This document shows, piece by piece, positions 8,697-33,144 of a stretch of DNA of 64,000 bases. Both the position numbers and the translations under genes were made by a program. Under the pieces are notes generated by a model. It was given only the letters and a program-made list of their open reading frames with translations. It had not been told where the DNA came from and ran no database searches. Positions within the stretch are counted from its first letter, which is position 1. The number at the start of each line of letters is the position of its first letter. Origin of the DNA: an uncultured Planctomycetales bacterium (GTDB taxonomy: Bacteria > Omnitrophota > Gorgyraeia > Zapsychrales > JANLHA01); contig CAYNSM010000001.1 of assembly GCA_964400065.1 (NCBI GenBank), forward strand, positions 16,685 to 80,684, given 5' to 3'.

Positions 8697-9449
8697 TTAT
8701 CCTTTATCTGTTGACTCAATATCCTTGATCAGGGCAAGAAACGATTCAACATACTGCGGACTTTGCAAAATTTGATTGACCCCGGCCTGATAGCTGCTCA
8801 TCGGCACGTTTTTTCCAACCGCGTACGTATACGCCACCACAGGAACCTGACTTAAATCTCTATAACTTTTTATTTTTTTGATAATTTCCTCACCGGCGCC
8901 ATCACTTTGGCCGCATTCTAAAAGAATAAAGCGCGGTTTACGCCTTTGCGTAATTCTTTCAAACTCCGTCGAAGCATTCACTCCAACAACATCATAGTTT
9001 TTGCTAATAAGAATTTTGGTAAGCTGACGTACTGTTTCTGACGCACAATGGTCAATGAGAAATACAATTGGCCGCGGCGCAAGAGCGATAATCCGGTGGA
9101 CTTCCTCGATAAAATGATTAATAAGAAAAGGCTTGGGGATAAACCCCGCGACGTTGACATCCTTAAAAATATCTTCGAATTCGATGCGGCTCGTCAAAAC
9201 AAGGACAGGATACAAAGAATGCTCACCATCGGCCATAATGTGCCGAAAAAATTCCAGACCATTCATCTGCGGCATATTAATATCAAGAATAATCAAAGAC
9301 GGGATGATGGTTTTTAACTTCTCTAGCCCTTCTTTCCCGTTAGAGGCGACAACGACGTCATATCCGGTATCTTCAAGCTGACGTTTCATTAAACCTGCGA
9401 GATGAACATCATCATCGATAATCAGAATAGTCGGAGCATGATCCATCAT
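8697..9449 (-). CDS. response regulator: canonical REC plus C-terminal pseudo-receiver (Glu at phosphoacceptor position)
   Basis: REC1 has IIDDD, LIILDINMP, VLVLTS and KPF. The second domain has IVFLIDH...ILLECGQSDG...VVAYT...K, with E replacing the phospho-Asp. Confidence 0.8.
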   Translation of the reverse strand: MMDHAPTILIIDDDVHLAGLMKRQLEDTGYDVVVASNGKEGLEKLKTIIPSLIILDINMPQMNGLEFFRHIMADGEHSLYPVLVLTSRIEFEDIFKDVNVAGFIPKPFLINHFIEEVHRIIALAPRPIVFLIDHCASETVRQLTKILISKNYDVVGVNASTEFERITQRRKPRFILLECGQSDGAGEEIIKKIKSYRDLSQVPVVAYTYAVGKNVPMSSYQAGVNQILQSPQYVESFLALIKDIESTDKG

Positions 9450-10864: not shown

Positions 10865-11287
10865 TTATTTGCTTTTTTTCTGAAACTGGGCTTTAACAAG
10901 GTCAATCAGCTGACTGCGGTCAAACGGCTTGGCGATAGCAGGATAATTCTGATTTTCAACTTTTAAAGTAATATTATTGACCTCTTCTTCCTTTTTGGTG
11001 ATCATTCCAGTTAAAAAGATCACTGGTGCTTGACAAGCATATTTTGTTTTGGCTTCCTGGATAATTTCGGCCCCATTCATATCAGGAAGCATCAAATCAA
11101 CAATCAAAAGATCCGGACGCTGCTCTTGAATCTTTTTCAAAGCCTCGGCCCCAGAGCTCGCCTTAACAATTTCAAAACCTTCTTGCGCTAAGATGTGATC
11201 GCAAAGCCGAAGAACCTGGAGATCATCTTCAATAATTAATATTTTCTTTTTATTTTCCACAAGCGGCTCCTTTTGAAATAAACGCAA
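10865..11287 (-). CDS. single-domain CheY-like response regulator
   Basis: ILIIEDD, LLIVDLMLPDMNG, IFLTG and KPF motifs. Confidence 0.8.
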   Translation of the reverse strand: MRLFQKEPLVENKKKILIIEDDLQVLRLCDHILAQEGFEIVKASSGAEALKKIQEQRPDLLIVDLMLPDMNGAEIIQEAKTKYACQAPVIFLTGMITKKEEEVNNITLKVENQNYPAIAKPFDRSQLIDLVKAQFQKKSK

Positions 11288-11404: not shown

Positions 11405-13885
11405 TTGAAGCGCGCTGATGCTTTCTATATAATGCCCGTCATGCGCTGGCTTAAAAAAACGTTTTTTATTCTTGTCTTTCTTTGCCTTGTCCTGGGTGGT
11501 GGAATATTTTACCTAAATACCATTTTTCTTCCCCTTCAAGTCAAAGATATCCTTAGCGCAAAAGCAACCGCCTGGCTAAAACGCAATGTTTCCGTCGGGG
11601 AAATAAAATTTCATCCGCAAAAAGGATTTATTCTTAAAAATATTCGCATTGACGAGCAGCTTTCTTCTGCTGTTGCGTTTATTAGCATCGATGAGGTCCG
11701 ATTTAACATTGTCCTTCCCAACTTTTTTCGGGCCCGCGAAATTTTTATCCCCTCGATAACACTCGACAAACCGGTTGTTCACCTTAAACGCATAAAAGAT
11801 GACCAATGGAACTTTTCTGATCTTCTAACCAAAAGCCCGACGAAGACAGAGAACAATTCTAGCACAAAATCCGGGAAAGTCAGGTTTTCTCTGGGCGCCG
11901 TCAAAATCCAAAATGGGCAAGTCATTATTTCAGATCCTGCGACAAGCGAAACAATCAACGTGCTTCATGCAAGCCTGCAGCTGTCTTTACCGGATGCGAT
12001 CCGCTTTGAATCTGATTTTGTCATCGAAGCTGACCATTGCACTTTGAGCATGAAAGGAAAATTCTTTCCCGCAGCGCAAGAATTAAACGCTTCCATAAAA
12101 ACACACAACTTAAACCCTCCGCGCTTGATTCATTTAACCGGCGTGCCGCTCTATGTTGTTTTTGACCGATGGCTCATTGACGAGGCTGACCTTGCGGTGC
12201 AATTTAAAAACAAGCAGTGGACGCTCAAAGGCATGATCATAGGACCCGTCGATATTACGACCAAAACGAATATTGCCGTAAAAACAACCGGCGTTATCAT
12301 TTCCAAAAACTTTACTTACCATAAACAAGGACGCGATTTTGATCTTGCCGGGAACTTTTTAGCAACTGATACGAGCATTGCGGTAGGCACAGACAAAATG
12401 TTTTCGGGTAATTTTTCGGGTACGGCGATTTCATTTCAAAAATCCGGCGATCATTTTACGATGACAGCAGACCTTTCGGCACAAAAAGCTAAAATACTCT
12501 GGGCCAAAGAAACCTTAACTGGCGACATTGAAACAAAAAAAATATTTTTTGATAAACTCGACGACAAACTAGTCCTTGCAGGCGAAAGCAAAATCATAAA
12601 TTCAACGTTCAAAGATCCCATTTGGGACATTGCCATAAACCAAGCTACAACCAATTGGAAATTTAATAGGCATAAAAACGGCTTCCTATTAGACATCCCT
12701 GATTTACGCGCAAAAAATCTTTCCGGGCTATTTTTGACAACACAAGTCGATGGTAGTGCAACGGCCCAGAATATTAAAATCAATTCGACTGATGAAATCT
12801 TAAACGCCCAAGGCCATTTTGTAACAGAAAACTTAAAGCTCGTGTGGCCAAACAAAATATCTTTTTCTGGCAATCCGCAATTTGATTTGACGCTCTCACG
12901 TAATCCCGCTGTCGACGACAACAAGATGATCCCAAGCGGCGTCATTCTTTTTTCTGACGACACATTCCAGGGAATTCCCAAAATTACTCAAATCAAGAAC
13001 CTCACCGGTCAACTCGTCTTTGGCGCGGATGAGGCTTCGAGCAAAAATCTTACGCTGACTCTTGGGCAAACGCCGCTATCGCTTGTCGGGACGATCGAGC
13101 ACTTTAGCGCCCCTGACATTGATGCAAAAGTTTTAGGAAAAGACTTTGATGTTTCTGTTTATTTTAAAACAGCCAGCCAACGTCAAAATATCCGCCTAGA
13201 AGGCCTTGTTTACGACGGAAAACTTTCCCTAGATGCCGACATTGCGCTACAAGAAAAAAATGTACCCAGCGAAATTGCGGCGAGCATCACAGGACTTCAT
13301 GTTCAAAGACTGAAGAATACTTTTCCCAAGTTAAAAGACAAAGACTTGTCTGGAATTTTATCAGCGAATGTCAATCTTAAAGGTCCGCTTGAAGATTACA
13401 AAGCTCTTGAGGGAAACGGAGCGATTGCCATCAAAGAGGGAAAACTCCTGGAACTGGAAATGCTCCAAGGAATTTGGAAAGTTTTATTTAACAATTTGCT
13501 CGTCGAAGATTATCGTAAAATCACCTTCACACAGGGCAAAGCGACTTTTAAAGTCCACGACGGGTTTATCAAAACCGAGGATCTTCTTTTAGAAAGTGAG
13601 CCTGCGGATATTTCAGCGCGCGGCTCACTAAGTTTAAATGGCGTATTAAATTTTGATGTGATTGCAAAAGTGCGGCAAGCGCCGATCGTCACGGCCTTAA
13701 GCCTGCAGGCTGTCCCAACAACAATTATTTCCCAAGTGGTCAAAAACGTCGTCGGAATAAAACTCACCGGATCAATCAGCGCCCCACAAGTCCGATACAA
13801 AATTCTCCCCTTAAAAGTTCTCGAAAAAACAACCGGGTCAATTTTTGAGGGGATACAAGGGATGCTGGAAGATATTTTGGAATAA
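11405..13885 (+). CDS. AsmA-family outer-membrane assembly-like protein
   Basis: N-terminal TM anchor followed by a long beta-rich region with an AsmA-like N-domain. 826 aa. The start may be a downstream Met (MRWLKK). Confidence 0.7.
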   Translation: MKRADAFYIMPVMRWLKKTFFILVFLCLVLGGGIFYLNTIFLPLQVKDILSAKATAWLKRNVSVGEIKFHPQKGFILKNIRIDEQLSSAVAFISIDEVRFNIVLPNFFRAREIFIPSITLDKPVVHLKRIKDDQWNFSDLLTKSPTKTENNSSTKSGKVRFSLGAVKIQNGQVIISDPATSETINVLHASLQLSLPDAIRFESDFVIEADHCTLSMKGKFFPAAQELNASIKTHNLNPPRLIHLTGVPLYVVFDRWLIDEADLAVQFKNKQWTLKGMIIGPVDITTKTNIAVKTTGVIISKNFTYHKQGRDFDLAGNFLATDTSIAVGTDKMFSGNFSGTAISFQKSGDHFTMTADLSAQKAKILWAKETLTGDIETKKIFFDKLDDKLVLAGESKIINSTFKDPIWDIAINQATTNWKFNRHKNGFLLDIPDLRAKNLSGLFLTTQVDGSATAQNIKINSTDEILNAQGHFVTENLKLVWPNKISFSGNPQFDLTLSRNPAVDDNKMIPSGVILFSDDTFQGIPKITQIKNLTGQLVFGADEASSKNLTLTLGQTPLSLVGTIEHFSAPDIDAKVLGKDFDVSVYFKTASQRQNIRLEGLVYDGKLSLDADIALQEKNVPSEIAASITGLHVQRLKNTFPKLKDKDLSGILSANVNLKGPLEDYKALEGNGAIAIKEGKLLELEMLQGIWKVLFNNLLVEDYRKITFTQGKATFKVHDGFIKTEDLLLESEPADISARGSLSLNGVLNFDVIAKVRQAPIVTALSLQAVPTTIISQVVKNVVGIKLTGSISAPQVRYKILPLKVLEKTTGSIFEGIQGMLEDILE

Positions 13886-15793: not shown

Positions 15794-16492
15794 CTATTGG
15801 ATTTTCATAAATTTATGCATTTGCGGCAAAACACGCGTATTGGGCAAACTTTTAAAACACAGCCGCTGAAAATCATCGCATTTCTCAACAACCCCTTTTT
15901 GCAAATCAAACGTGTTAGGTTGCAAAATAAAAAGTATATCTTTCTTAGCTACCCTTAAAATCTCAACCGTCCTAAGAATATCTTCCTTGCGTGTCTTCTT
16001 GGAAACAACAGCTTTAACGAACAAATCTTTTTTGTGACGCAAAACCGTTGCAACAAACTGCTCATGCTCTTTCCAAAATGCCCGTTCTCCCGTCGAACTT
16101 GGCATTTTAATGTCCATGGCCACAATGTCAATGTCCTTAATAATCTTACCTAATGCTTTGTGCAAAACGCCGCTGGTTTCCAGGTAAACCGGCCATTTAG
16201 CTTTTTTCAAAAGCGGCAAAAGCTTGCCAATAAAGTCCAGCTGCAAAAGCGGCTCCCCACCCGTCAAACTAACCGAGTGGCAGTCTTTAAACAAAACCTT
16301 AATCTTGGCAAAAACTTGCGCAAGCGTCATTTCTCTATAATCGCCCAGAGAATCCCCAATCGACTCAGGCGTATCACACCAAGAGCAGTGCATATGACAG
16401 CCAAAGAAACGCACAAAAACCTGCCGGACGCCAGCATACTTGCCTTCGCCTTGAATAGACTGAAAAATTTCTGAAATTTTAGCCGTTTGCAT
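15794..16492 (-). CDS. queE: 7-carboxy-7-deazaguanine synthase QueE (radical SAM)
   Basis: CHMHCSWCDT CX3CX2C cluster and LTGGEPL motif. Confidence 0.85.
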   Translation of the reverse strand: MQTAKISEIFQSIQGEGKYAGVRQVFVRFFGCHMHCSWCDTPESIGDSLGDYREMTLAQVFAKIKVLFKDCHSVSLTGGEPLLQLDFIGKLLPLLKKAKWPVYLETSGVLHKALGKIIKDIDIVAMDIKMPSSTGERAFWKEHEQFVATVLRHKKDLFVKAVVSKKTRKEDILRTVEILRVAKKDILFILQPNTFDLQKGVVEKCDDFQRLCFKSLPNTRVLPQMHKFMKIQ

Positions 16493-16499
16493 AAAACTT

Positions 16500-17156
16500 T
16501 TATCGACGATTTTTCGCCTCTTGAAAGCCTTTGACCCGAATCAAACAGCTGTCGCACACGCCACAGGGCTTTTTGCCACCAGCGTAACAGGACCATGTCA
16601 AATCATAAGGCACTTTTAATTTTTGTCCCAAACGGATAATCTGCGCTTTGGTTTTACGAATCAGCGGCGTATAAATTTTGATCGGTTTTCCCCCAACGCC
16701 CGTCTTTAAACCACGCTTAAGAGCCTGCGCAAACGCTTCATAAAATTCCGGCCGGCAATCAGGATACCCCGAATAATCAACGGCATTAGCGCCTATAAAA
16801 ATCGCATTGGCCCCGACAGTCTCGGCGAAAGATGCGGCAAAACTTAAAAAAATGATATTACGTGCCGGGACATAGGTTGCAGGAATTTCTCCTGACATAT
16901 TTTTGCGGTTTTTAGGAAGATCGACCTTTTTGTCCAAAAGCGCAGAGCCGCCCCACGGCAGACGAATCTTAATTATGTGGTATTCACTTTTTGTATAGTG
17001 GGCTAATTTTTTAGCTTGCAGGATTTCTTTGACGTGGCGCTGGCCGTAATCAAAAATCAGACAATGCGTTTCAAAGCCTTGAGAGCGACAATAAAAAAGA
17101 GTTGTGGCGGAATCCAAGCCGCCGGAAAGAAGGACAACGCACTTTTTGTTCATCAT
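16500..17156 (-). CDS. queC: 7-cyano-7-deazaguanine synthase QueC
   Basis: VVLLSGGLDSAT PP-loop and C-terminal CxxC...CxxC zinc site (CGVCDSC). Confidence 0.9.
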   Translation of the reverse strand: MMNKKCVVLLSGGLDSATTLFYCRSQGFETHCLIFDYGQRHVKEILQAKKLAHYTKSEYHIIKIRLPWGGSALLDKKVDLPKNRKNMSGEIPATYVPARNIIFLSFAASFAETVGANAIFIGANAVDYSGYPDCRPEFYEAFAQALKRGLKTGVGGKPIKIYTPLIRKTKAQIIRLGQKLKVPYDLTWSCYAGGKKPCGVCDSCLIRVKGFQEAKNRR

Positions 17157-17515: not shown

Positions 17516-18320
17516 GGCATCTTTCCACGTTACTAATATCAAAGCCTAAAAATCGACGAGCCAACTTTTGAAAATGTGCCGGCTCATCACTAACAAGAAA
17601 TTTATAACTACCTTTGTGCGTCTTTTCATTAAGAGCATCTTTCTGCTCCAAGACTTTTCGCACATCCACAACAACTTCCTCGGCGGAATCGACCAACTTA
17701 ACTTTTGCGCCCAAAACTTTACGCAATGTATTTTTTAACAACGGATAATGGGTGCAGCCTAAAATCAAAGTATCAATCTTTGACTGGCTTAATTTTTTCA
17801 AATACTCATTGGCGATTGTCACCGTCACAGGTTTCTTAGACCAGCCCTCTTCAATCAGCGGCACAAAAAGCGGACAAGCTTGGCCAATGACTTTTATTGT
17901 CGAATCTAACCGTGCGATTTCCTGCGGATAAGCGTAACTGTTGATCGTCGCGGGTGTCGCAATAATGCCAATTCTTTTATTTTTAGTGGCTTTCGCAGCG
18001 GCGCGACAGCCCGGCTCAATGACGCCAATAATCGGCAGATCAAAAGTTTCGTGCAAAGTGGCCAAGGCATGACTCGACGAGGAATTACACGCAACGACAA
18101 TCATTTTGACTTGTCGCTTTAAAAGCAAGGCTACGTTTTCTTTCGAAAAACGGATAATCGATTCCCGTGACTTTGTCCCATAAGGAACGCGTGCAGTATC
18201 GCCAAAATACACGATGTCTTCCTGAGGCATTCGGCGCATCAGCGCTTTGACAACCGTCAAGCCGCCTAAGCCCGAATCAAAAACGCCGATCGCTTGGTTT
18301 TTATTTTTTATACTCAACAT
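17508..18320 (-). CDS. murI: glutamate racemase
   Basis: IGVFDSGLGGLTV, VVACNSSS and GCTHYP motifs. Start at MLSIKNK. The upstream 15 codons of the tracked ORF are the repeat-containing leader. Confidence 0.9.
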   Translation of the reverse strand: MLSIKNKNQAIGVFDSGLGGLTVVKALMRRMPQEDIVYFGDTARVPYGTKSRESIIRFSKENVALLLKRQVKMIVVACNSSSSHALATLHETFDLPIIGVIEPGCRAAAKATKNKRIGIIATPATINSYAYPQEIARLDSTIKVIGQACPLFVPLIEEGWSKKPVTVTIANEYLKKLSQSKIDTLILGCTHYPLLKNTLRKVLGAKVKLVDSAEEVVVDVRKVLEQKDALNEKTHKGSYKFLVSDEPAHFQKLARRFLGFDISNVERCHV

Positions 18321-18330
18321 AAAAGTTTTT

Positions 18331-18358
18331 CCAGCCTCCAGCCTCCAGCCTCCAGCGT
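18331..18358 (-). repeat. tandem heptanucleotide repeat (GGAGGCT x3, plus a degenerate 4th unit) in the murI leader
   Basis: The plus strand reads ccagcctccagcctccagcctccagcgtc. On the coding strand this gives three consecutive GGAGG Shine-Dalgarno-like units 14-28 nt upstream of the murI ATG. Confidence 0.8.
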
Positions 18359-18370
18359 CTAACATCCTGT

Positions 18371-19381
18371 TTAACGTGCCGAAAAACTCGCCACACTTGC
18401 CGCAACTCCGTCGGCAATCTTTTGACGGTACTCAGCCTTTCGCAGCAACATTTCTTCTTGAGTATTCGATAAAAACCCGACTTCGACTAAAACAGCCGGA
18501 ATCAAAGTGTTACGCAAAACATGAAACCCCGCACGTTTAACCCCTCGGCTGACCACATTTGCCCCCAAACTTGTTCCTTTATTAACGTACGCCGCCAAAA
18601 GCTGGGACTCGGCCATTTTATAGTTATAAAGCATGTCGGCAATAATCGACTCAAGACTTGCATCATTGTTTTTCATCGTTAGACTTTTTGCCAAAACACG
18701 CTGGTTTTTAAGACGCTGCGGGTCACGCTTTTCGGCGCTGTTCAAATCCCTTAGCGCATAAACTTCAATCCCATCGACATTGCGTGTCGGACTGGAATTC
18801 GCATGGATGCTGACAAAAATATCTGCCTTGGCGCGAGTGGCGATTTCGGTGCGCTCCTCGAGCGAAATAAAAACATCTCGATCGCGCGTCATCGTGACTT
18901 TAAAACCCTTGTCTTCCAAGTTTTGTTTTAAACGCCGTGCGATATCAAGCGTAATATCTTTTTCTTCTGTCCCGTTTCGACTCCTGGCTCCCGGGTCCTT
19001 GCCGCCATGCCCGGCATCGACAACGATATGATAACCCTGCCGGCCTGCAATGGAGGAACCGACAACACGCAAAATAACTTTGGGCAGAAAATCTTCCGGA
19101 ACAATCACTCTGCCCTGTTCCCGACGCAAAACGTCACTTAAAAAAACTTTTTGACCCTCAACAACAACGATGTTGCTGCCGACTAAAGCTTTCGCTTCAC
19201 GGCCAGCGGCCCGAAGGTTCACAACCTGCGAAACATTGTCAAAATACCATTGAATATTGTATTGTTCGCAAAGGACTTTCAAATCACGCGAAACTTTGGG
19301 GCCCACAGGAAGCGTTTCGCAACCAGACATCCAAAGGATGCAACCTGCGGCAAAAACACAAAATAGATATTTTCTAAGCAT
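18371..19381 (-). CDS. N-acetylmuramoyl-L-alanine amidase (Amidase_3) lipoprotein
   Basis: Lipoprotein signal LWMSGC. Amidase_3 core HIVVDAGHGGKDPGA...DIFVSIHAN. Confidence 0.85.
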   Translation of the reverse strand: MLRKYLFCVFAAGCILWMSGCETLPVGPKVSRDLKVLCEQYNIQWYFDNVSQVVNLRAAGREAKALVGSNIVVVEGQKVFLSDVLRREQGRVIVPEDFLPKVILRVVGSSIAGRQGYHIVVDAGHGGKDPGARSRNGTEEKDITLDIARRLKQNLEDKGFKVTMTRDRDVFISLEERTEIATRAKADIFVSIHANSSPTRNVDGIEVYALRDLNSAEKRDPQRLKNQRVLAKSLTMKNNDASLESIIADMLYNYKMAESQLLAAYVNKGTSLGANVVSRGVKRAGFHVLRNTLIPAVLVEVGFLSNTQEEMLLRKAEYRQKIADGVAASVASFSAR

Positions 19382-19443
19382 ATGGAGAATTTATTATACC
19401 AGCATTTACTAAAAAACAAACCGTCGAACAATATTCTTCAACT

Positions 19444-20007
19444 TCATTTTAAACAATTGCGCAAATGATACCCCACAATCCCAAAGGCCACACCGACATT
19501 CAAAGAATTTTTATGCCCTGCCATTTCGATTTCAACAGACGCATCGGCTAAATCGACGAGTTGATCAGAAACCCCCTCTATTTCATTCCCGAGAATCAGA
19601 CACACCGGCGCCGTCGGCAAAAAATCATGGTACAAAACACTGCTGTCGGTCTGTTCTAAAACGACAATTTGATAACCGCTTTTTTTAAGATCGCCTACGA
19701 CCAAAGCGGCATCATACGCATGGTCCCAAGGCACACGCGTTTCTGCGCCAAGCGCTGTCTTTGCAATCTGGGAGTCTGGCGGATAACCGGTAATCCCGCA
19801 AAGCCAGATTTTTTCGACACCCATTCCGTCAGCGGTACGAAAAATCGAACCGACATTATAAAGACTGCGAATATCATTAAGAAGAACCGTCAAACGCAGA
19901 GGCTTTTGCGGATATGCGTCTTGACGAGCGACAATCTCTTGATGGGATAATTTTTTCATAAAGTTAAAAGGGGATGACCAAAAACTGGCCATCCCCTTTG
20001 AGGACAC
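19444..20007 (-). CDS. SpoU/TrmH-family RNA 2'-O-methyltransferase
   Basis: SPOUT motifs LRLTVLLNDIRSLYNVGSIFRTADGMG and LILGNEIEGVS...GHKNSLNVGVAFGI. Confidence 0.75.
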   Translation of the reverse strand: MSSKGMASFWSSPFNFMKKLSHQEIVARQDAYPQKPLRLTVLLNDIRSLYNVGSIFRTADGMGVEKIWLCGITGYPPDSQIAKTALGAETRVPWDHAYDAALVVGDLKKSGYQIVVLEQTDSSVLYHDFLPTAPVCLILGNEIEGVSDQLVDLADASVEIEMAGHKNSLNVGVAFGIVGYHLRNCLK

Positions 20008-20015
20008 GACAGCGT

Positions 20016-21035
<1,020 letters not shown>

Positions 21036-21082
21036 TTAATGTTGCTTTTTGTTAGTGAAATTTTTATGTTTAAGAACGAGGC

Positions 21083-22087
21083 TTACGAAATTGCGGCACG
21101 CAAATGCTCGGCGGCAACCGATGGGGCCGTGCGAACAACATAAAAACCGGTGCCCCATTCAAACCCGGCAACGCGGGTCAACTGCGGAACAATTTCAATA
21201 TGCCAATGATAGCTCTGCGGATTTTCGTAATCCACAGGAGTGACGTGCAAATAAAAATTATAAGAAGGATCCGATAAACAAACCTTTATCCGCAACAGAA
21301 CACTTTTGAGAATTTCCGCCAATTCCCGTCGCTCTTTGTCTTGCAAAGTGACAAAGTCGCAACCATGGTCTTTGGGGAAAATCCAGCTTTCAAACGGAAA
21401 GCGCGGGACAAACGGGCAAAAACTGATAAACCCGTCATTGCTGGTAATAATCCGTCGCTGGTCCTGATACTCTTGCTGTATCATATCGCAAAACACACAA
21501 CGCCCGCGAAAATCGTAATACTGTTTTGCGCCTTCCAATTCTTCGGCGACATATTTGGGCACCATCGGCAAAGCAATAATCTGGCTGTGCGCATGCTCAA
21601 CAGAGGCGCCGGCCGATTGGCCATAATTTTTAAAGATCATAATGTACTTAAAACGTTTATCTCTAGCCAAGCTCGCTGAGCGGCTTTGATAAAGCTTAAG
21701 GACATTGACGACTTCATCAACGGAATAATCCGCAAAATTTTTTGCGTGCTCTGGCGTTTCGATCAAAACCTCATGAGCTCCTACGCCATTGCTCATATCA
21801 TAAAGCCCTACGCCCCGACGGCCCAAATCGCCTTCAATACGCAGTGCCGGAAATTTATTGGGGACAACACGCGCCTGCCAGCCTATCGCATTGGGCGCAT
21901 ACACGCCCGGCCGAATTGCGTCGACTTCCGGTGGAGTTTGCGCTTCACGGCCTGCACAAAACTGACAAACCGCCGCCTGCTTAATAACATGCGGCTCTTT
22001 TTCATAATCCGCAGGGCCCAAAGACTTTTCGCGCTGTTCGACAATCACCCAACGGCCAATAACCGGATCTCTCCTTACTTCTGACAT
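21083..22087 (-). CDS. galT: galactose-1-phosphate uridylyltransferase family protein (GalT class I)
   Basis: CQFCAGRE zinc CxxC and HxHxQ active site (VEHAHSQIIALP) with both His present. 334 aa. Confidence 0.8.
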   Translation of the reverse strand: MSEVRRDPVIGRWVIVEQREKSLGPADYEKEPHVIKQAAVCQFCAGREAQTPPEVDAIRPGVYAPNAIGWQARVVPNKFPALRIEGDLGRRGVGLYDMSNGVGAHEVLIETPEHAKNFADYSVDEVVNVLKLYQSRSASLARDKRFKYIMIFKNYGQSAGASVEHAHSQIIALPMVPKYVAEELEGAKQYYDFRGRCVFCDMIQQEYQDQRRIITSNDGFISFCPFVPRFPFESWIFPKDHGCDFVTLQDKERRELAEILKSVLLRIKVCLSDPSYNFYLHVTPVDYENPQSYHWHIEIVPQLTRVAGFEWGTGFYVVRTAPSVAAEHLRAAIS

Positions 22088-23091
22088 TAAACTTTGACCT
22101 CCCGCAAAAAGTCCGCAACACTTTCCGGTGGAATCGAAGAAATATAAAATCCGGAACCCCGCTCAAAACCGGCCACACGCGTTAATCTCGGCAAAAGTTC
22201 GATATGCCAATGATAATCCTCAGCCAATGTTTTCCACTTCGTAGATTTTTCCCCATGACGAAATGGCGCAGAATGAATGACATAATTATACGCCGGGTCA
22301 TCCAATCCTTTTTTTAATTTCATCAAAAGGACTTTGATCAACCCCGCTAAATCATGCTCATGTCCGAGAACACCTTTGCCAAAATCGCAATGATGCTTCT
22401 TGGGAAGAATCCAAATTTCAAAAATAAAACGCGGCGCAAACGGTGTCATCGCCACAAAATGTTCGCTCTCGGCAATGATGCGGACCTTAGCTTCAAGCTC
22501 CTGGGCAATCATGTCGCAATACAGACAGCGTTCGCGGTAATTATAATATTTTTTGGCTCCGGCAAGTTTTTCTTTGGCGCTAAAAGGAATAACCGACGTA
22601 GAAATGATCTGCGAACGCGAATGCCCAATGCGACGAGAACCTGCCGCCCAGCCGTAATTTTTGTAAGCAATGACATATTGAAAATTGGCGTTTTTTTCAA
22701 GTTCATTGTAACGGACAGCGTAGGTTTCAAAAACCATGCGAATTTGTTCCTGGCTTAAATCCGCCATGTTGGCAATATGTTCCGGCGTTTCAATGACCAC
22801 CTCATGGCTGCCGTAATCATTGACCACATCATAAAGACCGTGACCTTTTCGGCTAAACTTTCCATGGGTCGACAAAAGAGGCGTACCGCTTTCGACAACA
22901 CGGACTTTCCACGGGCCGCCTGGCTGAGGATACACTGCATAAATTTCTTTTTCCTGATTGTCACAGAACGAACAATGCCCCGAATCAAAAGTATTCTTTT
23001 GGGAATCGATAAAAACACCAGGCCGTCTTGCTCTTTCAGTAGCAATAATGACCCAACGCCCGATAACCGGATCTTTACGTAGTTCTGGCAT
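22087..23091 (-). CDS. GalT-family paralog lacking the catalytic nucleophile His (H-S-R-S-Q)
   Basis: Collinear with the downstream copy (CSFCDNQE...IGHSRSQIIS). The second His of HPH is replaced by Arg. ATGA overlap at 22087. Confidence 0.75.
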   Translation of the reverse strand: MPELRKDPVIGRWVIIATERARRPGVFIDSQKNTFDSGHCSFCDNQEKEIYAVYPQPGGPWKVRVVESGTPLLSTHGKFSRKGHGLYDVVNDYGSHEVVIETPEHIANMADLSQEQIRMVFETYAVRYNELEKNANFQYVIAYKNYGWAAGSRRIGHSRSQIISTSVIPFSAKEKLAGAKKYYNYRERCLYCDMIAQELEAKVRIIAESEHFVAMTPFAPRFIFEIWILPKKHHCDFGKGVLGHEHDLAGLIKVLLMKLKKGLDDPAYNYVIHSAPFRHGEKSTKWKTLAEDYHWHIELLPRLTRVAGFERGSGFYISSIPPESVADFLREVKV

Positions 23092-23195
23092 ATATATTTA
23101 AAAAACGATTAAACACCCACCAATTTATTAATCAAGAAGAGCGATTATAGCATAATGACAACGACGTGCAAATTATTCTCCACTTTCCTACTTTT

Positions 23196-23564
23196 CTATT
23201 TTGCGGCAGAACTTAAAGCATTTTCAATCGCTGCCAATATTGTTTGCGTCTCATACGGTTTTGTAAAGTACGCTGTTACTCCTTCAACTTTAAACAAAGA
23301 ATCCAAATTTGCGTGCGCTGTTAATACGATAACCGGAATTTTGGCATTTTCTTTTTTGGTGCGCATTTCCTTAATAAAGGTATACCCGTCGAGCTTTGGC
23401 ATTTTAATATCAAGGATGATCAAGTCCGGTTTGCCTTCCTCAACTTTTTTTAGTCCCTCTTCTCCGTCAGATGCCTCCAAAACTTCATAATGGTGATGTT
23501 CCAAACGCTGCTTGAGTATTGTCGATAAATCAATTTCGTCTTCAACAATCAATATTCTCTTCAT
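23196..23564 (-). CDS. single-domain CheY-like response regulator
   Basis: MKRILIVEDE, LIILDIKMPKLDG, VIVLTA and KPY motifs. Confidence 0.8.
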   Translation of the reverse strand: MKRILIVEDEIDLSTILKQRLEHHHYEVLEASDGEEGLKKVEEGKPDLIILDIKMPKLDGYTFIKEMRTKKENAKIPVIVLTAHANLDSLFKVEGVTAYFTKPYETQTILAAIENALSSAAK

Positions 23565-23746
23565 TGTGCCTCCATTGTTGTGCAAAAAATTCCGCAAAAA
23601 CTTTAACACGCCATTTAATTCTACTTCAGAGACAAAAAAAACAAAGTTGATTAATGTTTTTTTTAAAAACCATTTTATATTTTTCTTGTGATTAAATAAG
23701 AAGACGGCTACAATGCCTCATTAATATTTAAACTGATAATTTTCTT

Positions 23747-24556
23747 ATGCCAAAAATAATTCTTGTTGTCGATGATGAGCCTGATCTAAGTCTTGTCATT
23801 GTTGAACGTCTTAAAAATGCAGGGTACGATGTTTCGTCTGCTCCCAACGGCCGCGTCGCATTAGAACAAATTAAAACCACCAAACCAGATTTAATTATTA
23901 CGGATGTTCTAATGCCAGAATTAGACGGCTTTGGTCTTTTTAAAGCTCTTCAACAAAACGCAGCCACCGCAAAAATCCCTGTGATTGTTCTGACGGCGCG
24001 GGGAAAAATGTCCGATACGTTTACATCCATGGGTGTTGCCGATTTCCTTGCAAAGCCTTTTGATGCACAAACATTACTGGCTACCGTTAATAAACATCTT
24101 GCGACAAGTGCGCCTATCGCCCCGACCCCAGCTATCGCCAAACCATTAACAAAAAATAAAAAAGTTTTCATTGCCGGTGTCGAAGATCAAGTCATACAAG
24201 AAATCTCCAAACAACTCCAAGAACAAGGTTATGCTATCGAAACAACGGCGGATTGTCTCCAAATTCTTCCCAAAATCGGGGCATTTCTGCCAAATGTATT
24301 CTTGCTGGAAATACCTTTGGAAAACATTGCTGTCAAAGACATCGTCAACATTGTCCGAGGGCTTCCTAAACTTCAAAAAATCCCTATCTTCCTTTATAGT
24401 TATCAAGAAACCGTCGAAGGCGGGACAGACGACACACGACAAAAAGCTATTAGTATTGATACCGCAAAGCAAGAATGCATTGATGCCGGAGCAACGGCAT
24501 ATATTGGAAGTTATAACGAAGGAAATTTTGTTAGATCGCTGATTAAACTTTTATAA
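23747..24556 (+). CDS. response regulator: REC plus C-terminal pseudo-receiver (Glu at phosphoacceptor position)
   Basis: REC1 has VVDDEPD, LIITDVLMPELDG, VIVLTA and KPF. The second domain has VFIAGVED, VFLLEIPLEN and IFLYSY. It is divergent from the REC gene at 23196-23564. Confidence 0.8.
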   Translation: MPKIILVVDDEPDLSLVIVERLKNAGYDVSSAPNGRVALEQIKTTKPDLIITDVLMPELDGFGLFKALQQNAATAKIPVIVLTARGKMSDTFTSMGVADFLAKPFDAQTLLATVNKHLATSAPIAPTPAIAKPLTKNKKVFIAGVEDQVIQEISKQLQEQGYAIETTADCLQILPKIGAFLPNVFLLEIPLENIAVKDIVNIVRGLPKLQKIPIFLYSYQETVEGGTDDTRQKAISIDTAKQECIDAGATAYIGSYNEGNFVRSLIKLL

Positions 24557-28538: not shown

Positions 28539-31493
28539 TCATTTAAAAACTTTATCGAGTATCCCGCCGATGATTTGCTCGCCCGTCGACTCTTGGCGTA
28601 GCGTGGAGGGGTCTTGAGCTTGCTGTTGATTTTGAGAATCGCGGGGAATTCCTAAAGCTTTATCTAAAATCTTGCCTAACTCTTTTTTGCCTTCATTGCG
28701 CGCTGCATTTTTGCCAAGGTCAAGAGCCGATTGCATGACAGAAATAACCGGCGTTTGGCTGCCCTTGCCGCTAATATGCACCGGCAAACTGATATTATTA
28801 TCGGCATCGTATAAATAGGTCAATTCTTCTGTCGATTGGCCCATGATCGCCGAAAGCTCTCGGGTAATTTTAAACGCGCCATCCAACGTATAAACCTGTT
28901 CAAAATTGACGTTCGATTTTCCCTCAAAAACAAACTCATCGGCCTTAACCGCAATCGGATCTACAAGAATATTTCCGCTGTTCAAATTAAAAGTCCCAGA
29001 AACTTCGTTAATTTGGGTATCTTTATCGTCGAGCTTGACCTTATAATTTTCGGGCAGCTTAGCCTCAATGCGAGAGGCCAGATCAGGAATAAAAGAAATT
29101 TTATCAAGGACCGTTTTAAGAACGTTCAAATCCATTAACTTAGCTTGCTTGACTTCAAAACTCCCATCCGCTGCCATCGATTTGATATCAGCGCCTTGGC
29201 CCTTGGCTTTGAAGTTTGCAAAAACCGACCCCCCAACCTTGAGGGAAGCTTGCGTTTGGTCAAGAAGTTGCGAAAGTTCAAGGCCTTTGATTTGCGTCGT
29301 CAGATCAAAATTTTGTTGCCTCATATAGTCGGTAACATCAATCTTAGAAACAATCTGCCCTTGGCCGAGATTAACCGCAAACTCATCGGCCGAAATTTGG
29401 TTTTCTGTCACTTTAAATTTTGCTGCGACACCGCTTATCGGCACGAGAAGCTCTTTGAGTTTGACCTCCCAATTCTTGAGCGTAACATCACTCGCCAAAG
29501 CCAAAAGTCCAGCTGGCCCGACGCTGACATTAGCAATCGCAACCTCTAACTCACCTTTAATTTTTTCGGGCAAGGACACATCTTTTAGCGACACGATTTT
29601 AGTTTTTATTTGTTCCAACGACACTTTCGCAAGATCTGTCTTAAACGCAGCCTCTGTTATGCTCACTTTTTGAGCCGACGGATCAAGCAGAACTTGCCCT
29701 TTGAAAGAAAGATTCGGTTCATCGCTTTCATATCCAAGCGTAGCCTCGAGCGCAAACGGCTTGATCAGAGAAAAATCTGTGACCTTGATATTGACCTGAT
29801 CCGCCGCAAGCGAAATCCCCGGAGCAAGTTCGTTGACGACAATTTTACCGTTTTGCCATTTCAGATCGACATTCATTGGACCTAAACCTTTAGGCGAAGC
29901 ATTAAGATCATTAATCTGCGCCTGAAAAACACCGGCAAGCGTTTGCGGAAAAACGATATTAGCCGGCACCAAGCCCAAAGCTTTAAAACGTTCCAAATCA
30001 AAACTGTTGGTATTAAATTCGGCAATCCCGTTTTTTATGGAAACCTCTTGCGTGTTTAAATCCAAAGCAACAGCACCAGAAAAAGAGACATTTTGAGATT
30101 CACTTAAATACGCACTCTTTAGAGAAACGCTAAACTGCTTGCCGAATGAAAAATTTTCGATTTTTACATCCGTTTTTGCCAAAGCTACCAGCGCACCGGG
30201 CAAAATATCTTTTAACAAAATCGTGCCGTCCTGCCAGTTTAAGTCCAAAAGAACGCTCTGCAAGCCGCTTGAGGAAACGAGCGCTTCCTTAATACTAACT
30301 TTAAATTTGCCTGACAAATCTTCCGGCAAAGCGACATCTTTTAGAGGTACAATCGCCGACTTGATTTTTGCAAGCGGCCAGAGGGCAAGATCCGTCGAGA
30401 ATTCTGCGTCAGTAATCTGCGCTTGCATTTTTTGCGGATCAAGCAAAACTTTAGCACTCAAGTCAAAATTCGTTTGCTCCTGATACAACGCCGCCTTCAC
30501 ACTGACTAGCAAAGGCCGTGTATTATCCAGCGAAAAATTTTCACAACTGATATTCAATCGTCTTGCTTCCAAGGAAATTCCGGGAACAAACTCATCGGCG
30601 ACGACTTTGGCGTTGGTCAAATAAATGTCCGTATTAAATTTTTCAACACCTTTGGAGGAAAGCTCTAACTGATGAATTTTAAATTTTAGCTGTCCGTCAA
30701 GAATTCGCGGAAAAGTCACTTGGGCTAAGCTCGGCAGGGCTTTTAACTTTTCCAACGGCAATTGACTTAAATTAACACCTAAGTCCATCTCGGAAAGCAT
30801 AAGCTGTAATTTAGCTAAATCCAGCTGAGCTTTCGCATTAAACGAAAAATTCTTTTGGTCAGACAAAACAGCCGCATCCAAAAGAACATCAAAAGGCTTG
30901 GTAAGAGAAAATTCTTTAACTTCTAACGTTGCCTGCGAAACGTCAAGCTTAAGCTCTGGCACAACAGTTTGGTCGATCAAGACAATCTGTGCATTTTCGA
31001 TTTTTAAAGAATTAATAAAAATTACCGGAATTGCCGACGACCGGGTAAGAGCTGCGGATTGCGAGGCCTCTTGCTTAGCGGCCATACTTTGAAAATTCAA
31101 AAGACCTTTGGAATTTCGGATAATCGAAATCTGCGGAGAATCAATGAGAATCCCGGGCACCGATATCTGGCGCGTCGTCAAAAAAGCCACCAAATCAACC
31201 CCCAAATCGATTTGCTTGACCGTCACAAAATTTTCATTGCCAAAATCCGGGTTCTCGGCAATCGAAAAATCGGTCAAATGAAACCGCACACCTTTTTCCA
31301 TTGAGACTGCAAGATCGATATCATTAAAATTAACCGCCCGCCCCAAAGCATTGGTCGCCGAGGCAATAATTTGCGGCTTATATTTCTTAATATCAAACGT
31401 CTTCAAAAAAATCAGCCCCGCAAAAAGCACAAGGACGATTAAAATAAAAACGCTAAACACAAAAATCCCAAAAATCTGAAAAAACTTTTTCAT
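28539..31493 (-). CDS. AsmA-family large envelope protein
   Basis: N-terminal TM anchor plus about 950 aa of beta-rich repeat. AsmA-like organisation. Confidence 0.75.
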   Translation of the reverse strand: MKKFFQIFGIFVFSVFILIVLVLFAGLIFLKTFDIKKYKPQIIASATNALGRAVNFNDIDLAVSMEKGVRFHLTDFSIAENPDFGNENFVTVKQIDLGVDLVAFLTTRQISVPGILIDSPQISIIRNSKGLLNFQSMAAKQEASQSAALTRSSAIPVIFINSLKIENAQIVLIDQTVVPELKLDVSQATLEVKEFSLTKPFDVLLDAAVLSDQKNFSFNAKAQLDLAKLQLMLSEMDLGVNLSQLPLEKLKALPSLAQVTFPRILDGQLKFKIHQLELSSKGVEKFNTDIYLTNAKVVADEFVPGISLEARRLNISCENFSLDNTRPLLVSVKAALYQEQTNFDLSAKVLLDPQKMQAQITDAEFSTDLALWPLAKIKSAIVPLKDVALPEDLSGKFKVSIKEALVSSSGLQSVLLDLNWQDGTILLKDILPGALVALAKTDVKIENFSFGKQFSVSLKSAYLSESQNVSFSGAVALDLNTQEVSIKNGIAEFNTNSFDLERFKALGLVPANIVFPQTLAGVFQAQINDLNASPKGLGPMNVDLKWQNGKIVVNELAPGISLAADQVNIKVTDFSLIKPFALEATLGYESDEPNLSFKGQVLLDPSAQKVSITEAAFKTDLAKVSLEQIKTKIVSLKDVSLPEKIKGELEVAIANVSVGPAGLLALASDVTLKNWEVKLKELLVPISGVAAKFKVTENQISADEFAVNLGQGQIVSKIDVTDYMRQQNFDLTTQIKGLELSQLLDQTQASLKVGGSVFANFKAKGQGADIKSMAADGSFEVKQAKLMDLNVLKTVLDKISFIPDLASRIEAKLPENYKVKLDDKDTQINEVSGTFNLNSGNILVDPIAVKADEFVFEGKSNVNFEQVYTLDGAFKITRELSAIMGQSTEELTYLYDADNNISLPVHISGKGSQTPVISVMQSALDLGKNAARNEGKKELGKILDKALGIPRDSQNQQQAQDPSTLRQESTGEQIIGGILDKVFK

Positions 31494-31499
31494 AACCGC

Positions 31500-33107
31500 T
31501 TATTCCTTCTGTTGGTCCAAGGCCGTTAAGGTGAAAATCAACGGCACAAATCCCAAACTTGCCTGTTGTTCTTGATTATTGACAATACGCACACGACGAG
31601 GATCGACATGTTCTTTAAGCAATGCCTCATAAACAACCTTGGCCCGACCAGAGGCCAATTCGTTTAAAGCAGACTTGTCAGGGAAAGCATCTTCACTTAA
31701 TTGCCGGCGGATTTCGGGATTAAGCTTTTCGTAATCATACCCGCCTTTGATTTTAAAATGCTTGGTTAACTTCCACAATTGCCTGATCCCATAATGGCGC
31801 TGATACAACGTCTGCAAAATCCAATATTCGCTGCGGCTGGTTTCTTTGTGCAAAGCCTCATATTCTTTTAAAAAACGGCCTGTTTTGATAGCTTTCCAGT
31901 CGAGTGTTATATCGTAACTACCGTTTATTTCTAAAAGCAATTTGGGCCGCTGTTTCAAAGCTTGGGCCAAGGAAACAATCTTCTGCTGCTCCTGCGACGA
32001 CAAATCAACCTCCCCGGGCAAAAACTTAACCGAGCCTAATTCTTGGCTGCCAGCTTGCGAACCAATCAAAGACCCTAACATCGAAAAAGGAGCAGTCGTT
32101 AACTTAATAAAAAAATTGCGCGCAGTTTGTCCAATCAAATGCGTGTATGTAAACTTTGGATCACTCAAGTCGCCCGTAACCGGCAAAGAAATATCAATGC
32201 GGCCCTGCGAATCTTCCAGTAAAGCAACGGCCAGCCCAAAAGGCAAATTGAGCGCATCCTTACTCTCAACCTTTTGGCCAAAAGTAAAACCTTCAATCAA
32301 AAGCTTGTGGGATGCGGTCAAATGATTTTGACTGATCCGGTACGTCGTCGAAAAATCGAGTTCTCCCTCAGACAATCCACGGCCGGTATATTTTCCGACA
32401 TAAGGGCCAACCACGGTAAGGGCATAATGGTCCAAGCCAAAATTCAAATCCAAGTCCAGCGGAGAAGCAAAAGGCTTAATCTGTGCCGAAGCATTGATAA
32501 TCCCTCGATCATCAATCAGTGCTTTCAACGTCAAAGCCGTCATTCCCTGCGTTTGCGTTGAAAAATTTTGAACCGTCACATTAATATCGTTTAAAACTGT
32601 TTTAAAAATCGGGGCAACTGTCTTATCCTCAAAGCTGATACGCGCATCGCGGATTACAATAGCGTCGATAAAAAGAGCTGGCAAGACGGTTGGTTTTTGC
32701 TCTGCGGCTACCGGGGAAACAGCAGGGAAAAGATCGAGCAAATTGATTCGTCCGTTTTCTGACAATGTCGCGGCAACAGCAAGCCCAGATAATTCGACCG
32801 ACTCGATACGATAAATTTTTTTCAACAGACTCAAGCAACTGACGTCAACACTCAAGCGGTCAAAAGCGACAAGCGCTCGGGTGGACGCATCCTGAATTTG
32901 AAAACCTTTCAACGTGACACGCCACAAAAAAGGATTAACCACGGCCGACCGAAGCTTGACGGGGACTTTAAGAAATTTCGTTGCCTGCACGCTAAGAGCC
33001 CACGGCAAAACCAACGGGATGATGACGAGGGTCCCAACAAAATAAAACAGAATAAGGCCAATCGCACACTTGGCCATCAAACCGCAGAATGACTTTAAAA
33101 ATTTCAT
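31500..33107 (-). CDS. DUF748/AsmA-like envelope protein
   Basis: TM anchor and beta-rich body. Start set at MKFLKSF to avoid a 35-nt overlap with the upstream gene. Confidence 0.65.
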   Translation of the reverse strand: MKFLKSFCGLMAKCAIGLILFYFVGTLVIIPLVLPWALSVQATKFLKVPVKLRSAVVNPFLWRVTLKGFQIQDASTRALVAFDRLSVDVSCLSLLKKIYRIESVELSGLAVAATLSENGRINLLDLFPAVSPVAAEQKPTVLPALFIDAIVIRDARISFEDKTVAPIFKTVLNDINVTVQNFSTQTQGMTALTLKALIDDRGIINASAQIKPFASPLDLDLNFGLDHYALTVVGPYVGKYTGRGLSEGELDFSTTYRISQNHLTASHKLLIEGFTFGQKVESKDALNLPFGLAVALLEDSQGRIDISLPVTGDLSDPKFTYTHLIGQTARNFFIKLTTAPFSMLGSLIGSQAGSQELGSVKFLPGEVDLSSQEQQKIVSLAQALKQRPKLLLEINGSYDITLDWKAIKTGRFLKEYEALHKETSRSEYWILQTLYQRHYGIRQLWKLTKHFKIKGGYDYEKLNPEIRRQLSEDAFPDKSALNELASGRAKVVYEALLKEHVDPRRVRIVNNQEQQASLGFVPLIFTLTALDQQKE

Positions 33108-33144
33108 GGGGCCATTGTAGCACTCGACAAATAAGTTGTCATTA

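Follow-up and report, generated by a model that had tools for sequence, protein, structure and literature searches.

Reciprocal loss of active-site elements in a tandem pair of GalT-fold paralogs of Omnitrophota suggests a heterodimeric enzyme

The gene pair

Two adjoining genes, A and B, are arranged head to tail in the minus strand of a 64-kb stretch of DNA from an Omnitrophota bacterium (the window, whose positions are used for all coordinates) and probably encode the two halves of one enzyme. Their products are 41% identical over the full length (BLASTP E-value 4e-94), both pass the gathering scores of the Pfam families PF01087 and PF02744, and they are ancient paralogs belonging to the class I GalT-fold enzymes of the histidine-triad (HIT) superfamily.

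22087–23091, minus strand: gene A, the upstream copy; open reading frame (ORF) of 334 amino acids, a GalT/ADP-glucose-phosphorylase-like paralog without the His nucleophile
21083–22087, minus strand: gene B, the downstream copy; ORF of 334 amino acids, a GalT/ADP-glucose-phosphorylase-like paralog with the catalytic motif intact
22085–22103, minus strand: junction of A and B, with a Shine-Dalgarno sequence inside the 3′ end of A followed by TAATG

At the junction the sequence TAATG (22089–22085) contains both the TAA stop codon of A (22089–22087) and the ATG start codon of B (22087–22085), and the Shine-Dalgarno sequence GGGAGG (22103–22098) is located 10 nucleotides upstream of that ATG. The genes hence overlap by one nucleotide and not by the four of an ATGA, as had been stated in an earlier description of this DNA made from its letters and ORFs (the sequence-only reading). 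The other sequence features given in that description agree with our results: the ORFs and the Pfam matches bear out two 334-residue proteins at 21083–23091 with a CxxC motif and the general layout of GalT, and the alignments to At5g18200 and to E. coli GalT uphold the reading of the active-site motif as H-A-H-S-Q in the downstream copy and H-S-R-S-Q in the upstream one, with the nucleophilic His changed to Arg.

Relation to enzymes of known structure

In phmmer searches against the PDB sequences the best match of both proteins was At5g18200 (1Z84), aligned over the full length with E-values of 2.9e-61 for A and 5.7e-64 for B, the match to E. coli GalT being much weaker (E-values of about 1e-17 to 1e-23). 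The AlphaFold2 model of A, with a predicted local distance difference test score (pLDDT) of 81.9 and a predicted template modelling score (pTM) of 0.85, had 2H39 as its top Foldseek match (template modelling scores, or TM-scores, of 0.82/0.87), and its TM-scores against 2H39, 1HXQ and 5IN3 were 0.78–0.82. By sequence and by fold, the closest characterised homolog is the ADP-glucose phosphorylase At5g18200. In the model, which is that of a monomer, pLDDT fell below 50 at residues 20–34, 148–152, 281–285 and 306–312. These segments include the N-terminal arm and part of the C-terminal loop, which would be expected to become ordered only against a partner chain, an agreement that we regard as suggestive only.

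The nearest database relatives of the pair belong to Candidatus Omnitrophota. Against the profile TIGR00209 (cut-off 102.1 bits) B scored 115.2, just above the threshold, and A scored 93.9, below it, and against NF008724 (cut-off 448 bits) both stayed below, with 109 bits for A and 136 for B. An automatic procedure would give B the name GalT, only marginally.

Active-site residues of A and B

22609–22623, minus strand: modified HIT motif of A, H157-S-R159-S-Q161, with the Zn-ligand His and the Gln kept and the nucleophile changed to Arg
21581–21595, minus strand: intact H-x-H-x-Q motif of B, H165-A-H167-S-Q169, with the nucleophilic His present
23020–23034, minus strand: N-terminal arm of A, R20-A-R-R23-P24, equivalent to R28/R31 of E. 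coli GalT and R48/R51 of the human enzyme (alignment to 1HXQ)
22013–22039, minus strand: residues 17–25 of B, E-Q-R-E-K21-S-L-G24-P, the N-terminal arm, without the two partner-directed arginines, whose positions in the family alignment hold K21 and G24
22873–22899, minus strand: V-V-E-S68-G-T-P-L-L of A, a degenerate form of the own-chain (cis) nucleotide-binding motif V-V-P-N-K-F-P-A-L
21842–21868, minus strand: V-V-P-N77-K-F-P-A-L of B, the intact own-chain (cis) nucleotide-binding motif
22138–22185, minus strand: residues 303–318 of A, L-T-R-V-A-G-F-E-R-G-S-G-F-Y-I-S, the C-terminal loop; in GalT its equivalent binds hexose-1-phosphate and is lent by one chain to the site of the other

The HIT motif H-x-H-x-Q, whose second His is the nucleophile, is present in B and broken in A. 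Residues H157, R159 and Q161 of A align with H164, H166 and Q168 of E. coli GalT, and R159 falls on His186 of At5g18200 (1Z84), the same residue that is replaced by Gly in the mutant 2H39; the alignments to solved structures offered no alternative His of A for the nucleophile position. A nevertheless keeps the residues of the phosphate and sugar side of the pocket, namely the Zn-ligand His157, Ser160, Gln161, Lys144 and Asn145. The metal sites are also retained. The CxxC motif reads C40-S-F-C43 in A and C41-Q-F-C44 in B, and the predicted ligands of the structural Zn are C40, C43, H105 and H157 in A and C41, C44, H114 and H165 in B. The ligand columns of this site are 98–100% conserved in every group of the alignment described below, and both the first Zn site of At5g18200 (C63, C66, H133 and H184) and its second CxxC/His/His cluster (C216, C219, H255 and H310) are conserved in A, B and all orthologs. 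A has the fold of the family but, lacking the nucleophile, could not be one of its catalytic members by the canonical mechanism.

At5g18200 (1Z84, 1ZWJ and 2H39) is of the same length class as A and B and shares the H-x-H-x-Q nucleophile motif with B. It differs from them in being a homodimer with two equivalent sites, whereas here there are two diverged chains, each of which would hold half of the requirements; its His186 stands where A has Arg, at the position mutated to Gly in 2H39.

An active site shared between two chains

Class I GalTs and At5g18200 form homodimers that have their sites of catalysis between the subunits (bioRxiv 10.64898/2026.09.13.751320). In human GALT, residues K334–Q346 of one chain and Q188 and N173 of the other build the hexose-1-phosphate site, R48 comes from the chain opposite to Gln188 (the Gln of the H-x-H-x-Q motif), and Asn97, which corresponds to N94 of At5g18200, interacts with Gln188 in the same chain (PMC5081055). 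Residues R28, R31, G159 and S161 of E. coli GalT (R48, R51, G179 and S181 in the human enzyme) contact UDP-glucose in the E. coli structure (PMC5081055). Carried over to A and B, this arrangement would have the chain itself provide the cis elements, that is the nucleophile loop with H-x-H-x-Q, the Zn site and the nucleotide motif with its Asn, and the partner provide the trans elements, that is the arginine pair of the N-terminal arm together with the sugar-phosphate loop at the C-terminus. The residues lost by A are those that act in their own chain and the residues lost by B are those that act on the site of the partner; hence, only the combination A:B would have one complete site.

Conservation of the pair across Omnitrophota

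A scan of one genome per species gave 80 loci, 39 of which carry an A-type gene. The sequences were aligned in groups made up of 35 A proteins without the His, four A proteins with it, 34 B proteins (30 partners of non-His A proteins and four from control pairs) and 42 single-copy orthologs from other phyla, plus At5g18200. In about 40 species-level genomes of Omnitrophota, A is followed by B on the same strand: a B-type gene lies 3′ of A in all 39 A loci except L028 and L037, whose contigs stop directly behind that gene. The distance from the stop codon of A to the start codon of B is mostly −17 to +13 nucleotides. At two loci, L010 (7029–7430) and L011 (7029–7292), the genes are separated by 260–400 nucleotides without overlap, and in L010 a short ORF of opposite orientation lies between them. 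The conserved place of the pair is between priA-fmt (or tyrS) and gap-pgk-tpi-secG; gap was found 3′ of the pair in 31 related loci, often followed by pgk-tpi-secG. Two close relatives (87–89% identity) have an identical layout of A, a one-nucleotide overlap, B and gap.

The change at the nucleophile position recurs among the relatives. Among the 120 closest homologs of A (55–100% identity), 118 lack the His and have mostly Arg, in a few cases Cys or Leu. Of 39 A copies, 34 are without it (33 with Arg and one with Cys); in the aligned set, Arg occupies the position in 34 of the 35 non-His copies and is written with all six of its codons (CGT, CGC, CGG, CGA, AGG and AGA). The nucleophilic His of B is present in 34/34 copies. 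Genomes of about 40 species, with identities as low as 47%, have an intact ORF for A, and 65 columns are invariant across 29 A-clade sequences. The ratio of nonsynonymous to synonymous substitution rates (dN/dS), calculated against the two close relatives, was 0.040–0.045 for A, 0.038–0.055 for B and 0.023–0.032 for gap, purifying selection thus being equal on A and B. Among the roughly 40 pairs the only frameshift was met in a B gene, that of the metagenome-assembled genome L008 (7000–8000), which breaks near residue 80–97, its tblastn matches being divided over frames 1 and 2, and may reflect either an assembly error or a real pseudogene. A shows what is expected of a pseudoenzyme partner: loss of the catalytic residue, purifying selection and strict co-occurrence with B. 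In a neighbour-joining (NJ) tree the A clade and the B clade are each monophyletic.

Reciprocal loss of cis and trans elements

The losses were located by examining the columns that are at least 85% conserved in the 42 single-copy orthologs, with the numbering of At5g18200. Those lost in A and kept in B are N94, the neighbouring Lys, A98, A180, M182 and the nucleophile H186. Position 94 is Asn in 100% of the 42 single-copy orthologs and in all 34 B proteins, and Ser in 30 of the 35 A proteins. Lost in B are R41 and R44, which are Arg in 95–98% of the single-copy orthologs and are kept in 34 and 33 of the 35 A copies, respectively. Across 30 B proteins these two positions are hypervariable (N/H/D/Q/K/S and G/K/L/T/A/V), a pattern that reads as a signature of relaxed constraint.

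The fractions of residues matching the single-copy consensus were as follows:

Whole protein: A 0.60, B 0.60
N-terminal arm: A 0.88, B 0.57
N-K-F-P-A-L motif: A 0.54, B 0.90
Catalytic loop: A 0.57, B 0.76

The asymmetry between A and B is regional, their overall divergence from the single-copy consensus being equal. Within the A clade, conservation of the C-terminal-loop motif A-G-F-E-x-G-x-G-F-Y is 91% or higher. Bacterial 'GalT' orthologs present in single copy fall into one protein clade with A and B (42–47% identity to A, with higher scores against B) and keep all cis and trans elements of the active site; they are single genes, presumably encoding homodimers, in glycogen clusters, whereas the Omnitrophota pair lies beside gap-pgk-tpi and would divide both roles between two genes.

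Three of the four pairs with a His-keeping A preserve an earlier state. At L025, L027 and L029, A still has its His, yet it has already exchanged Asn for Ser and its B partner has already lost the arm arginines, which indicates that the asymmetry preceded the loss of the nucleophile and suggests that the Asn went first, the arm arginines next and the His last. In the fourth pair, L002, A also retains the Asn, and B has Lys at both arm positions.

Fused genes

At the same chromosomal position, ahead of gap-pgk-tpi-secG, some genomes carry A and B as a single gene. An exhaustive search of representatives found the 599-residue fusion P0123 just upstream of gap-pgk-tpi-secG, and two further fusions of 596 and 599 residues came from other samples with the same synteny; the three proteins (596–599 residues) are divergent, with 52–56% identity among them. 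A phosphoglucomutase gene is present a few genes upstream in the fusion-bearing genomes. In all three proteins the arm M-S-E-L-R-K...W-V-x-V-A-V-E-R-A-K-R-P-N-D-F is invariant and the rest of the N-terminal half of A has become unrecognisable, with loss of the CxxC, H-E-V-I-I-E and H-x-R-x-Q motifs. The C-terminal half of A, including A-G-F-E-W-G-T-G-x-Y-I-N-P, is again invariant in the three, and is followed by a short linker rich in Ser and Lys. The B part starts at the CxxC motif and has no arm; it has N-K-F-P-A-L and H-P-H-T-Q intact and its C-terminal loop relaxed. When unfused sequences were added with MAFFT, those of A type and those of B type were both placed on the B half of the fusion alignment. 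Read from their sequences, the fusions are the end state that a heterodimer model would predict.

In a protein of another kind from the search of representatives, P0128 (871 residues), a long N-terminus of low complexity precedes two complete GalT-like units in tandem. Each unit has the His nucleophile (H-A-H-S-Q in one, H-P-H-S-Q in the other), and the protein is a covalent 'homodimer-like' counterpart of the A-B fusion.

A proposed heterodimer with a single composite site

Taking into account that: (i) the His to Arg change is fixed in A; (ii) the pair is found throughout the phylum; (iii) the losses in A and B are complementary, and (iv) the two genes have been fused in one lineage, we propose that A and B are probably obligate partners in an A:B heterodimer, which would have one active site composed from both chains. 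In the model, B, which keeps all the cis elements and has lost the trans arginines, would be the catalytic subunit, and A, which keeps all the trans elements and has lost the nucleophile and the nucleotide-binding Asn, would be the non-catalytic one. The site formed by B in cis and A in trans would be complete, and the one formed by A in cis and B in trans would be dead. An A:A dimer would have the partner-directed elements without a nucleophile, and a B:B dimer would have nucleophiles without the arm arginines. The tight translational coupling of the genes, through TAATG and the internal Shine-Dalgarno sequence, would favour the co-production of both chains. We infer both the physical A:B heterodimer and the inactivity of the site of A itself from comparison of sequences. 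A heteromeric assembly with one catalytic and one non-catalytic chain had already been put forward in the sequence-only reading, and among its suggestions it is the one best supported by the comparative evidence; the survey of relatives that it called for found the tandem pair and the His to Arg change conserved across Omnitrophota. As for the two findings that it named as fatal to its view, no His of A falls on the nucleophile position, and the pair is not a recent duplication with a decaying copy, since it is old, as its 41% identity indicates, and A is not decaying.

Several observations weigh against this proposal or restrict it. The assignment of cis and trans elements was carried over by alignment from E. 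coli and human GALT, and not from a structure of this clade. In the unfused pairs the trans C-terminal loop is as well conserved in B as in A (0.81 vs 0.81); relaxation of the B loop would be expected were the site of A simply dead, so the second site may still bind something. Together with this, the Arg at the nucleophile position of A is kept by selection rather than drifting, which hints at a residual role for that site. AlphaFold2, run on the 599-residue fusion P0123 with an alignment of three sequences, returned a mean pLDDT of 32 and a pTM of 0.23, values too low to speak for or against a complex. A sister relationship between the A and B clades is not resolved by the NJ tree, which therefore does not prove one duplication in the ancestor of the Omnitrophota. 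Finally, no relatives of glgA, glgC or GH57 genes were found in the 64-kb window, a point that bears on the metabolic part of the interpretation given below.

Part of these observations would be accommodated if A were a regulatory subunit within the heterodimer, its pocket being rebuilt as a ligand sensor in which Arg159 binds phosphate or a sugar phosphate and tunes the site of B. The recurrence of Arg in 34/35 non-His copies through six different codons implies that the Arg itself is selected, the phosphate/sugar residues of the pocket of A enumerated above are kept, and B retains a trans C-terminal loop able to complete that pocket. In addition, the two sites of the human GALT dimer are interdependent, the Q188R substitution being partially dominant negative (PMC5081055). 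However, the fusions have lost the N-terminal half of A, with both the Arg loop and the Zn site, and have relaxed the B loop, so that the pocket is dispensable in that lineage, and the sequence alone names no ligand. On balance we consider such a sensor unlikely.

Much less probable is that A acts alone, as a homodimer or a monomer, in a new chemistry that proceeds without the covalent His intermediate, such as hydrolysis or phosphorolysis of a nucleotide sugar in a direct reaction, or pure binding, its pairing with B reflecting nothing but shared regulation. A is intact, is predicted to be well folded, is under strong purifying selection and keeps both metal sites, all of which would suit such an independent protein. 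Yet it has also lost the 100%-conserved nucleotide-binding Asn and its neighbours, which makes the altered chemistry of A alone that the sequence-only reading had offered as its second option improbable. Moreover, independence of A leaves unexplained why B has lost exactly those arm arginines that A has kept and why A has been fused to B with a decayed N-terminal half, and, contig ends aside, A was never seen without B directly downstream. The view of A as a decaying duplicate on its way to a pseudogene, with only B being of importance, to which the missing catalytic His and the score below the TIGR00209 cut-off might be thought to point, is ruled out by a dN/dS of about 0.04, the same as that of B, and by the conservation of A throughout the phylum, where its ORF and 65 of its columns are maintained, the replacement residue itself is conserved and the only frameshift is in a copy of B.

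Probable chemistry and the glycogen context

By analogy with At5g18200, the most likely chemistry is of the ADP-glucose phosphorylase type, the chances of this being about even. In that case, the enzyme would convert nucleoside diphosphate (NDP)-glucose and inorganic phosphate reversibly into glucose-1-phosphate and NDP through a nucleotidyl-His167 intermediate on B, and would act between glycogen or glucose-1-phosphate and glycolysis and not in the Leloir pathway of galactose. Neither galK nor galE nor galM was found by Pfam within 10 kb on either side of the pair, nor in the 80 related loci, whose neighbouring genes were either fmt/priA together with gap-pgk-tpi or glycogen genes. The sequence-only reading was hence correct in reporting no adjacent galK or galE, which holds for at least 10 kb on each side, and its doubt about a Leloir role gains weight from the closest characterised relative being an ADP-glucose phosphorylase and from the orthologs lying in glycogen clusters. 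With the Leloir enzymes (E. coli GalT and human GALT; class I, IPR001937) A and B have in common the fold and, in the case of B, the ping-pong catalytic motif. The completion of each site of the Leloir dimer by the arm arginines and the C-terminal loop of the other chain would be a further likeness. They differ from them in the weak sequence match, the score below the NF008724 cut-off, the lack of gal neighbours and the association of their orthologs with glycogen genes.

This association is recurrent. The single-copy orthologs, from Nitrospirota, Planctomycetota, Acidobacteriota and others, adjoin the genes of glycogen synthase (glgA) and glucose-1-phosphate adenylyltransferase (glgC) and two GH57 genes, and conserved glgC-glgA-GH57 clusters were found in the loci L042–L080, for instance at L045 (3032–10449), L078 (261–5691), L064 and L066. 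The GalT-like protein is also found fused to GlgA, in an 814-residue protein of Coprothermobacterota with 19 cluster members, and to GH57, in a protein of 875 residues (these glycogen-type fusion proteins being P0188 and P0147). The clustering of the orthologs with glgC and glgA, and the fusion to GlgA, an enzyme that uses ADP-glucose, lend indirect support to ADP-glucose phosphorolysis. The whole single-copy clade looks like a glycogen-pathway enzyme misnamed as an enzyme of galactose metabolism. Glycogen synthesis and Embden-Meyerhof fermentation are among the capacities reported for Omnitrophota genomes (PMC8542988).

At least one genome assigned to the phylum departs from the tandem arrangement: L059 (Candidatus Omnitrophota isolate Zod_Metabat.338) has only a single His-type copy, in a glgC-glgA-GH57 cluster, grouped by NJ with sequences from outside Omnitrophota, and represents either an ancestral state or a binning or taxonomy issue.

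A bolder proposition joins two claims, that the dead half-site has been rebuilt around Arg159 as a phosphate or sugar-phosphate sensor gating the catalytic site, and that the whole bacterial 'GalT' clade is an unrecognised NDP-glucose phosphorylase at the core of glycogen metabolism and coupled to GlgA. We hold it to be rather doubtful. If it were true, the reverse reaction could use glucose-1-phosphate and the ADP set free by GlgA to form ADP-glucose anew at no cost of ATP, and the Omnitrophota version would be wired to the gap-pgk-tpi operon.

Surroundings of the pair in the window

20016–21020, minus strand: glyceraldehyde-3-phosphate dehydrogenase gene (gap), with the Pfam domains Gp_dh_N and Gp_dh_C, 62 nucleotides downstream of B
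23144–23172, minus strand: promoter-like site, TTTGCA, a 17-nucleotide spacer and TG-n-TATAAT, in the 104-nucleotide interval between the response-regulator gene and A
23196–23609, minus strand: single-domain response-regulator gene (Pfam Response_reg), directly upstream of A, given for context only

No convincing terminator was found between B and gap, and gap is probably part of the same operon as A and B. The site at 23172–23144 is the top sigma-70-type match in the region 18000–24000, with agreement at 10 of 12 positions and an extended −10 TG, as a match to the consensus only; placed 50–80 nucleotides upstream of A, it is likely to be the start of the A-B(-gap) transcript.

The window is rich in response-regulator genes, at 23196–23609 (minus strand), 23747–24556 (plus strand), 8697–9449, 10985–11248 and 41445–43739. 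In other phyla, homologs of the single-domain response regulator (cluster c17) border the glgC-galT-like-glgA clusters, beside a protein of about 470 residues (c22), and these neighbours hint at a two-component input to the A-B pathway.

Downstream of the amidase and racemase genes, the stretch 15794–17156 (minus strand) carries queuosine-precursor genes, one radical-SAM QueE-like and one QueC. A PTPS (QueD-like) gene is present in the syntenic relatives L081 and L082, and the block gap-SpoU methylase-amidase-racemase-PTPS-QueC is kept in close relatives. Within 20 kb there are also three large genes of the AsmA/DUF748/YhdP family, at 11405–13885 (plus strand), 28539–31493 (minus strand) and 31500–33179 (minus strand), encoding 826, 984 and 559 residues, respectively, and probably envelope lipid-transport proteins. 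Two very large ORFs adjoin each other at 50841–54809 and 54831–60536, both on the minus strand, with 1322 and 1901 residues.

Relation to known systems and implications

Enzymes of the GalT fold are a textbook case of homodimers in which both active sites are shared, and heterodimers of mutant and normal human GALT are central to the genetics of galactosemia. A literature search on heteromeric GalT-fold enzymes or pseudoenzyme partners in the HIT superfamily returned nothing relevant, and neither did one on GalT-like genes in GH57 or bacterial glycogen clusters. In its accessible part, a 2024 survey in Chemical Reviews that deals with the alpha-glucan enzymes of prokaryotes makes no mention of GalT or of ADP-glucose phosphorylase, and the literature matches to 'ADP-glucose phosphorylase' are mostly misnomers for the pyrophosphorylase.

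The principle of a pseudoenzyme paralog that completes an active partner is known. In the ADP-glucose pyrophosphorylases (AGPases), GlgC/GlgD of Firmicutes and the small and large subunits of plants, a weakly catalytic or non-catalytic paralog subunit is retained for the full function of the hetero-oligomer. These pairs resemble A and B in that a duplicated, selected subunit of low or no activity partners a catalytic paralog in ADP-glucose metabolism. Unlike A and B, they have an unrelated fold, a nucleotidyltransferase with a left-handed beta-helix, and a complete pocket in each subunit. The active site of the GalT fold, by contrast, is intrinsically shared between chains, and the degeneration of A and B is accordingly reciprocal. 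What is new is that own-chain and partner-directed elements have been lost in a complementary manner from a dimer with shared sites, together with living intermediates and a fused end state.

If the proposed heterodimer is correct, the pair would be a natural example of how a homodimer with shared sites becomes an obligate enzyme/pseudoenzyme heterodimer by complementary loss. One lineage would have gone further, fusing the chains and letting the useless half decay, and intermediate stages are alive in related genomes. The pair would also provide an experimental system in which to ask whether a single site of a GalT dimer suffices. As regards annotation, thousands of bacterial genes called 'GalT', situated in glycogen clusters or joined to the gene of glycogen synthase, probably do not encode enzymes of galactose metabolism, and copies of the A type would be non-catalytic.

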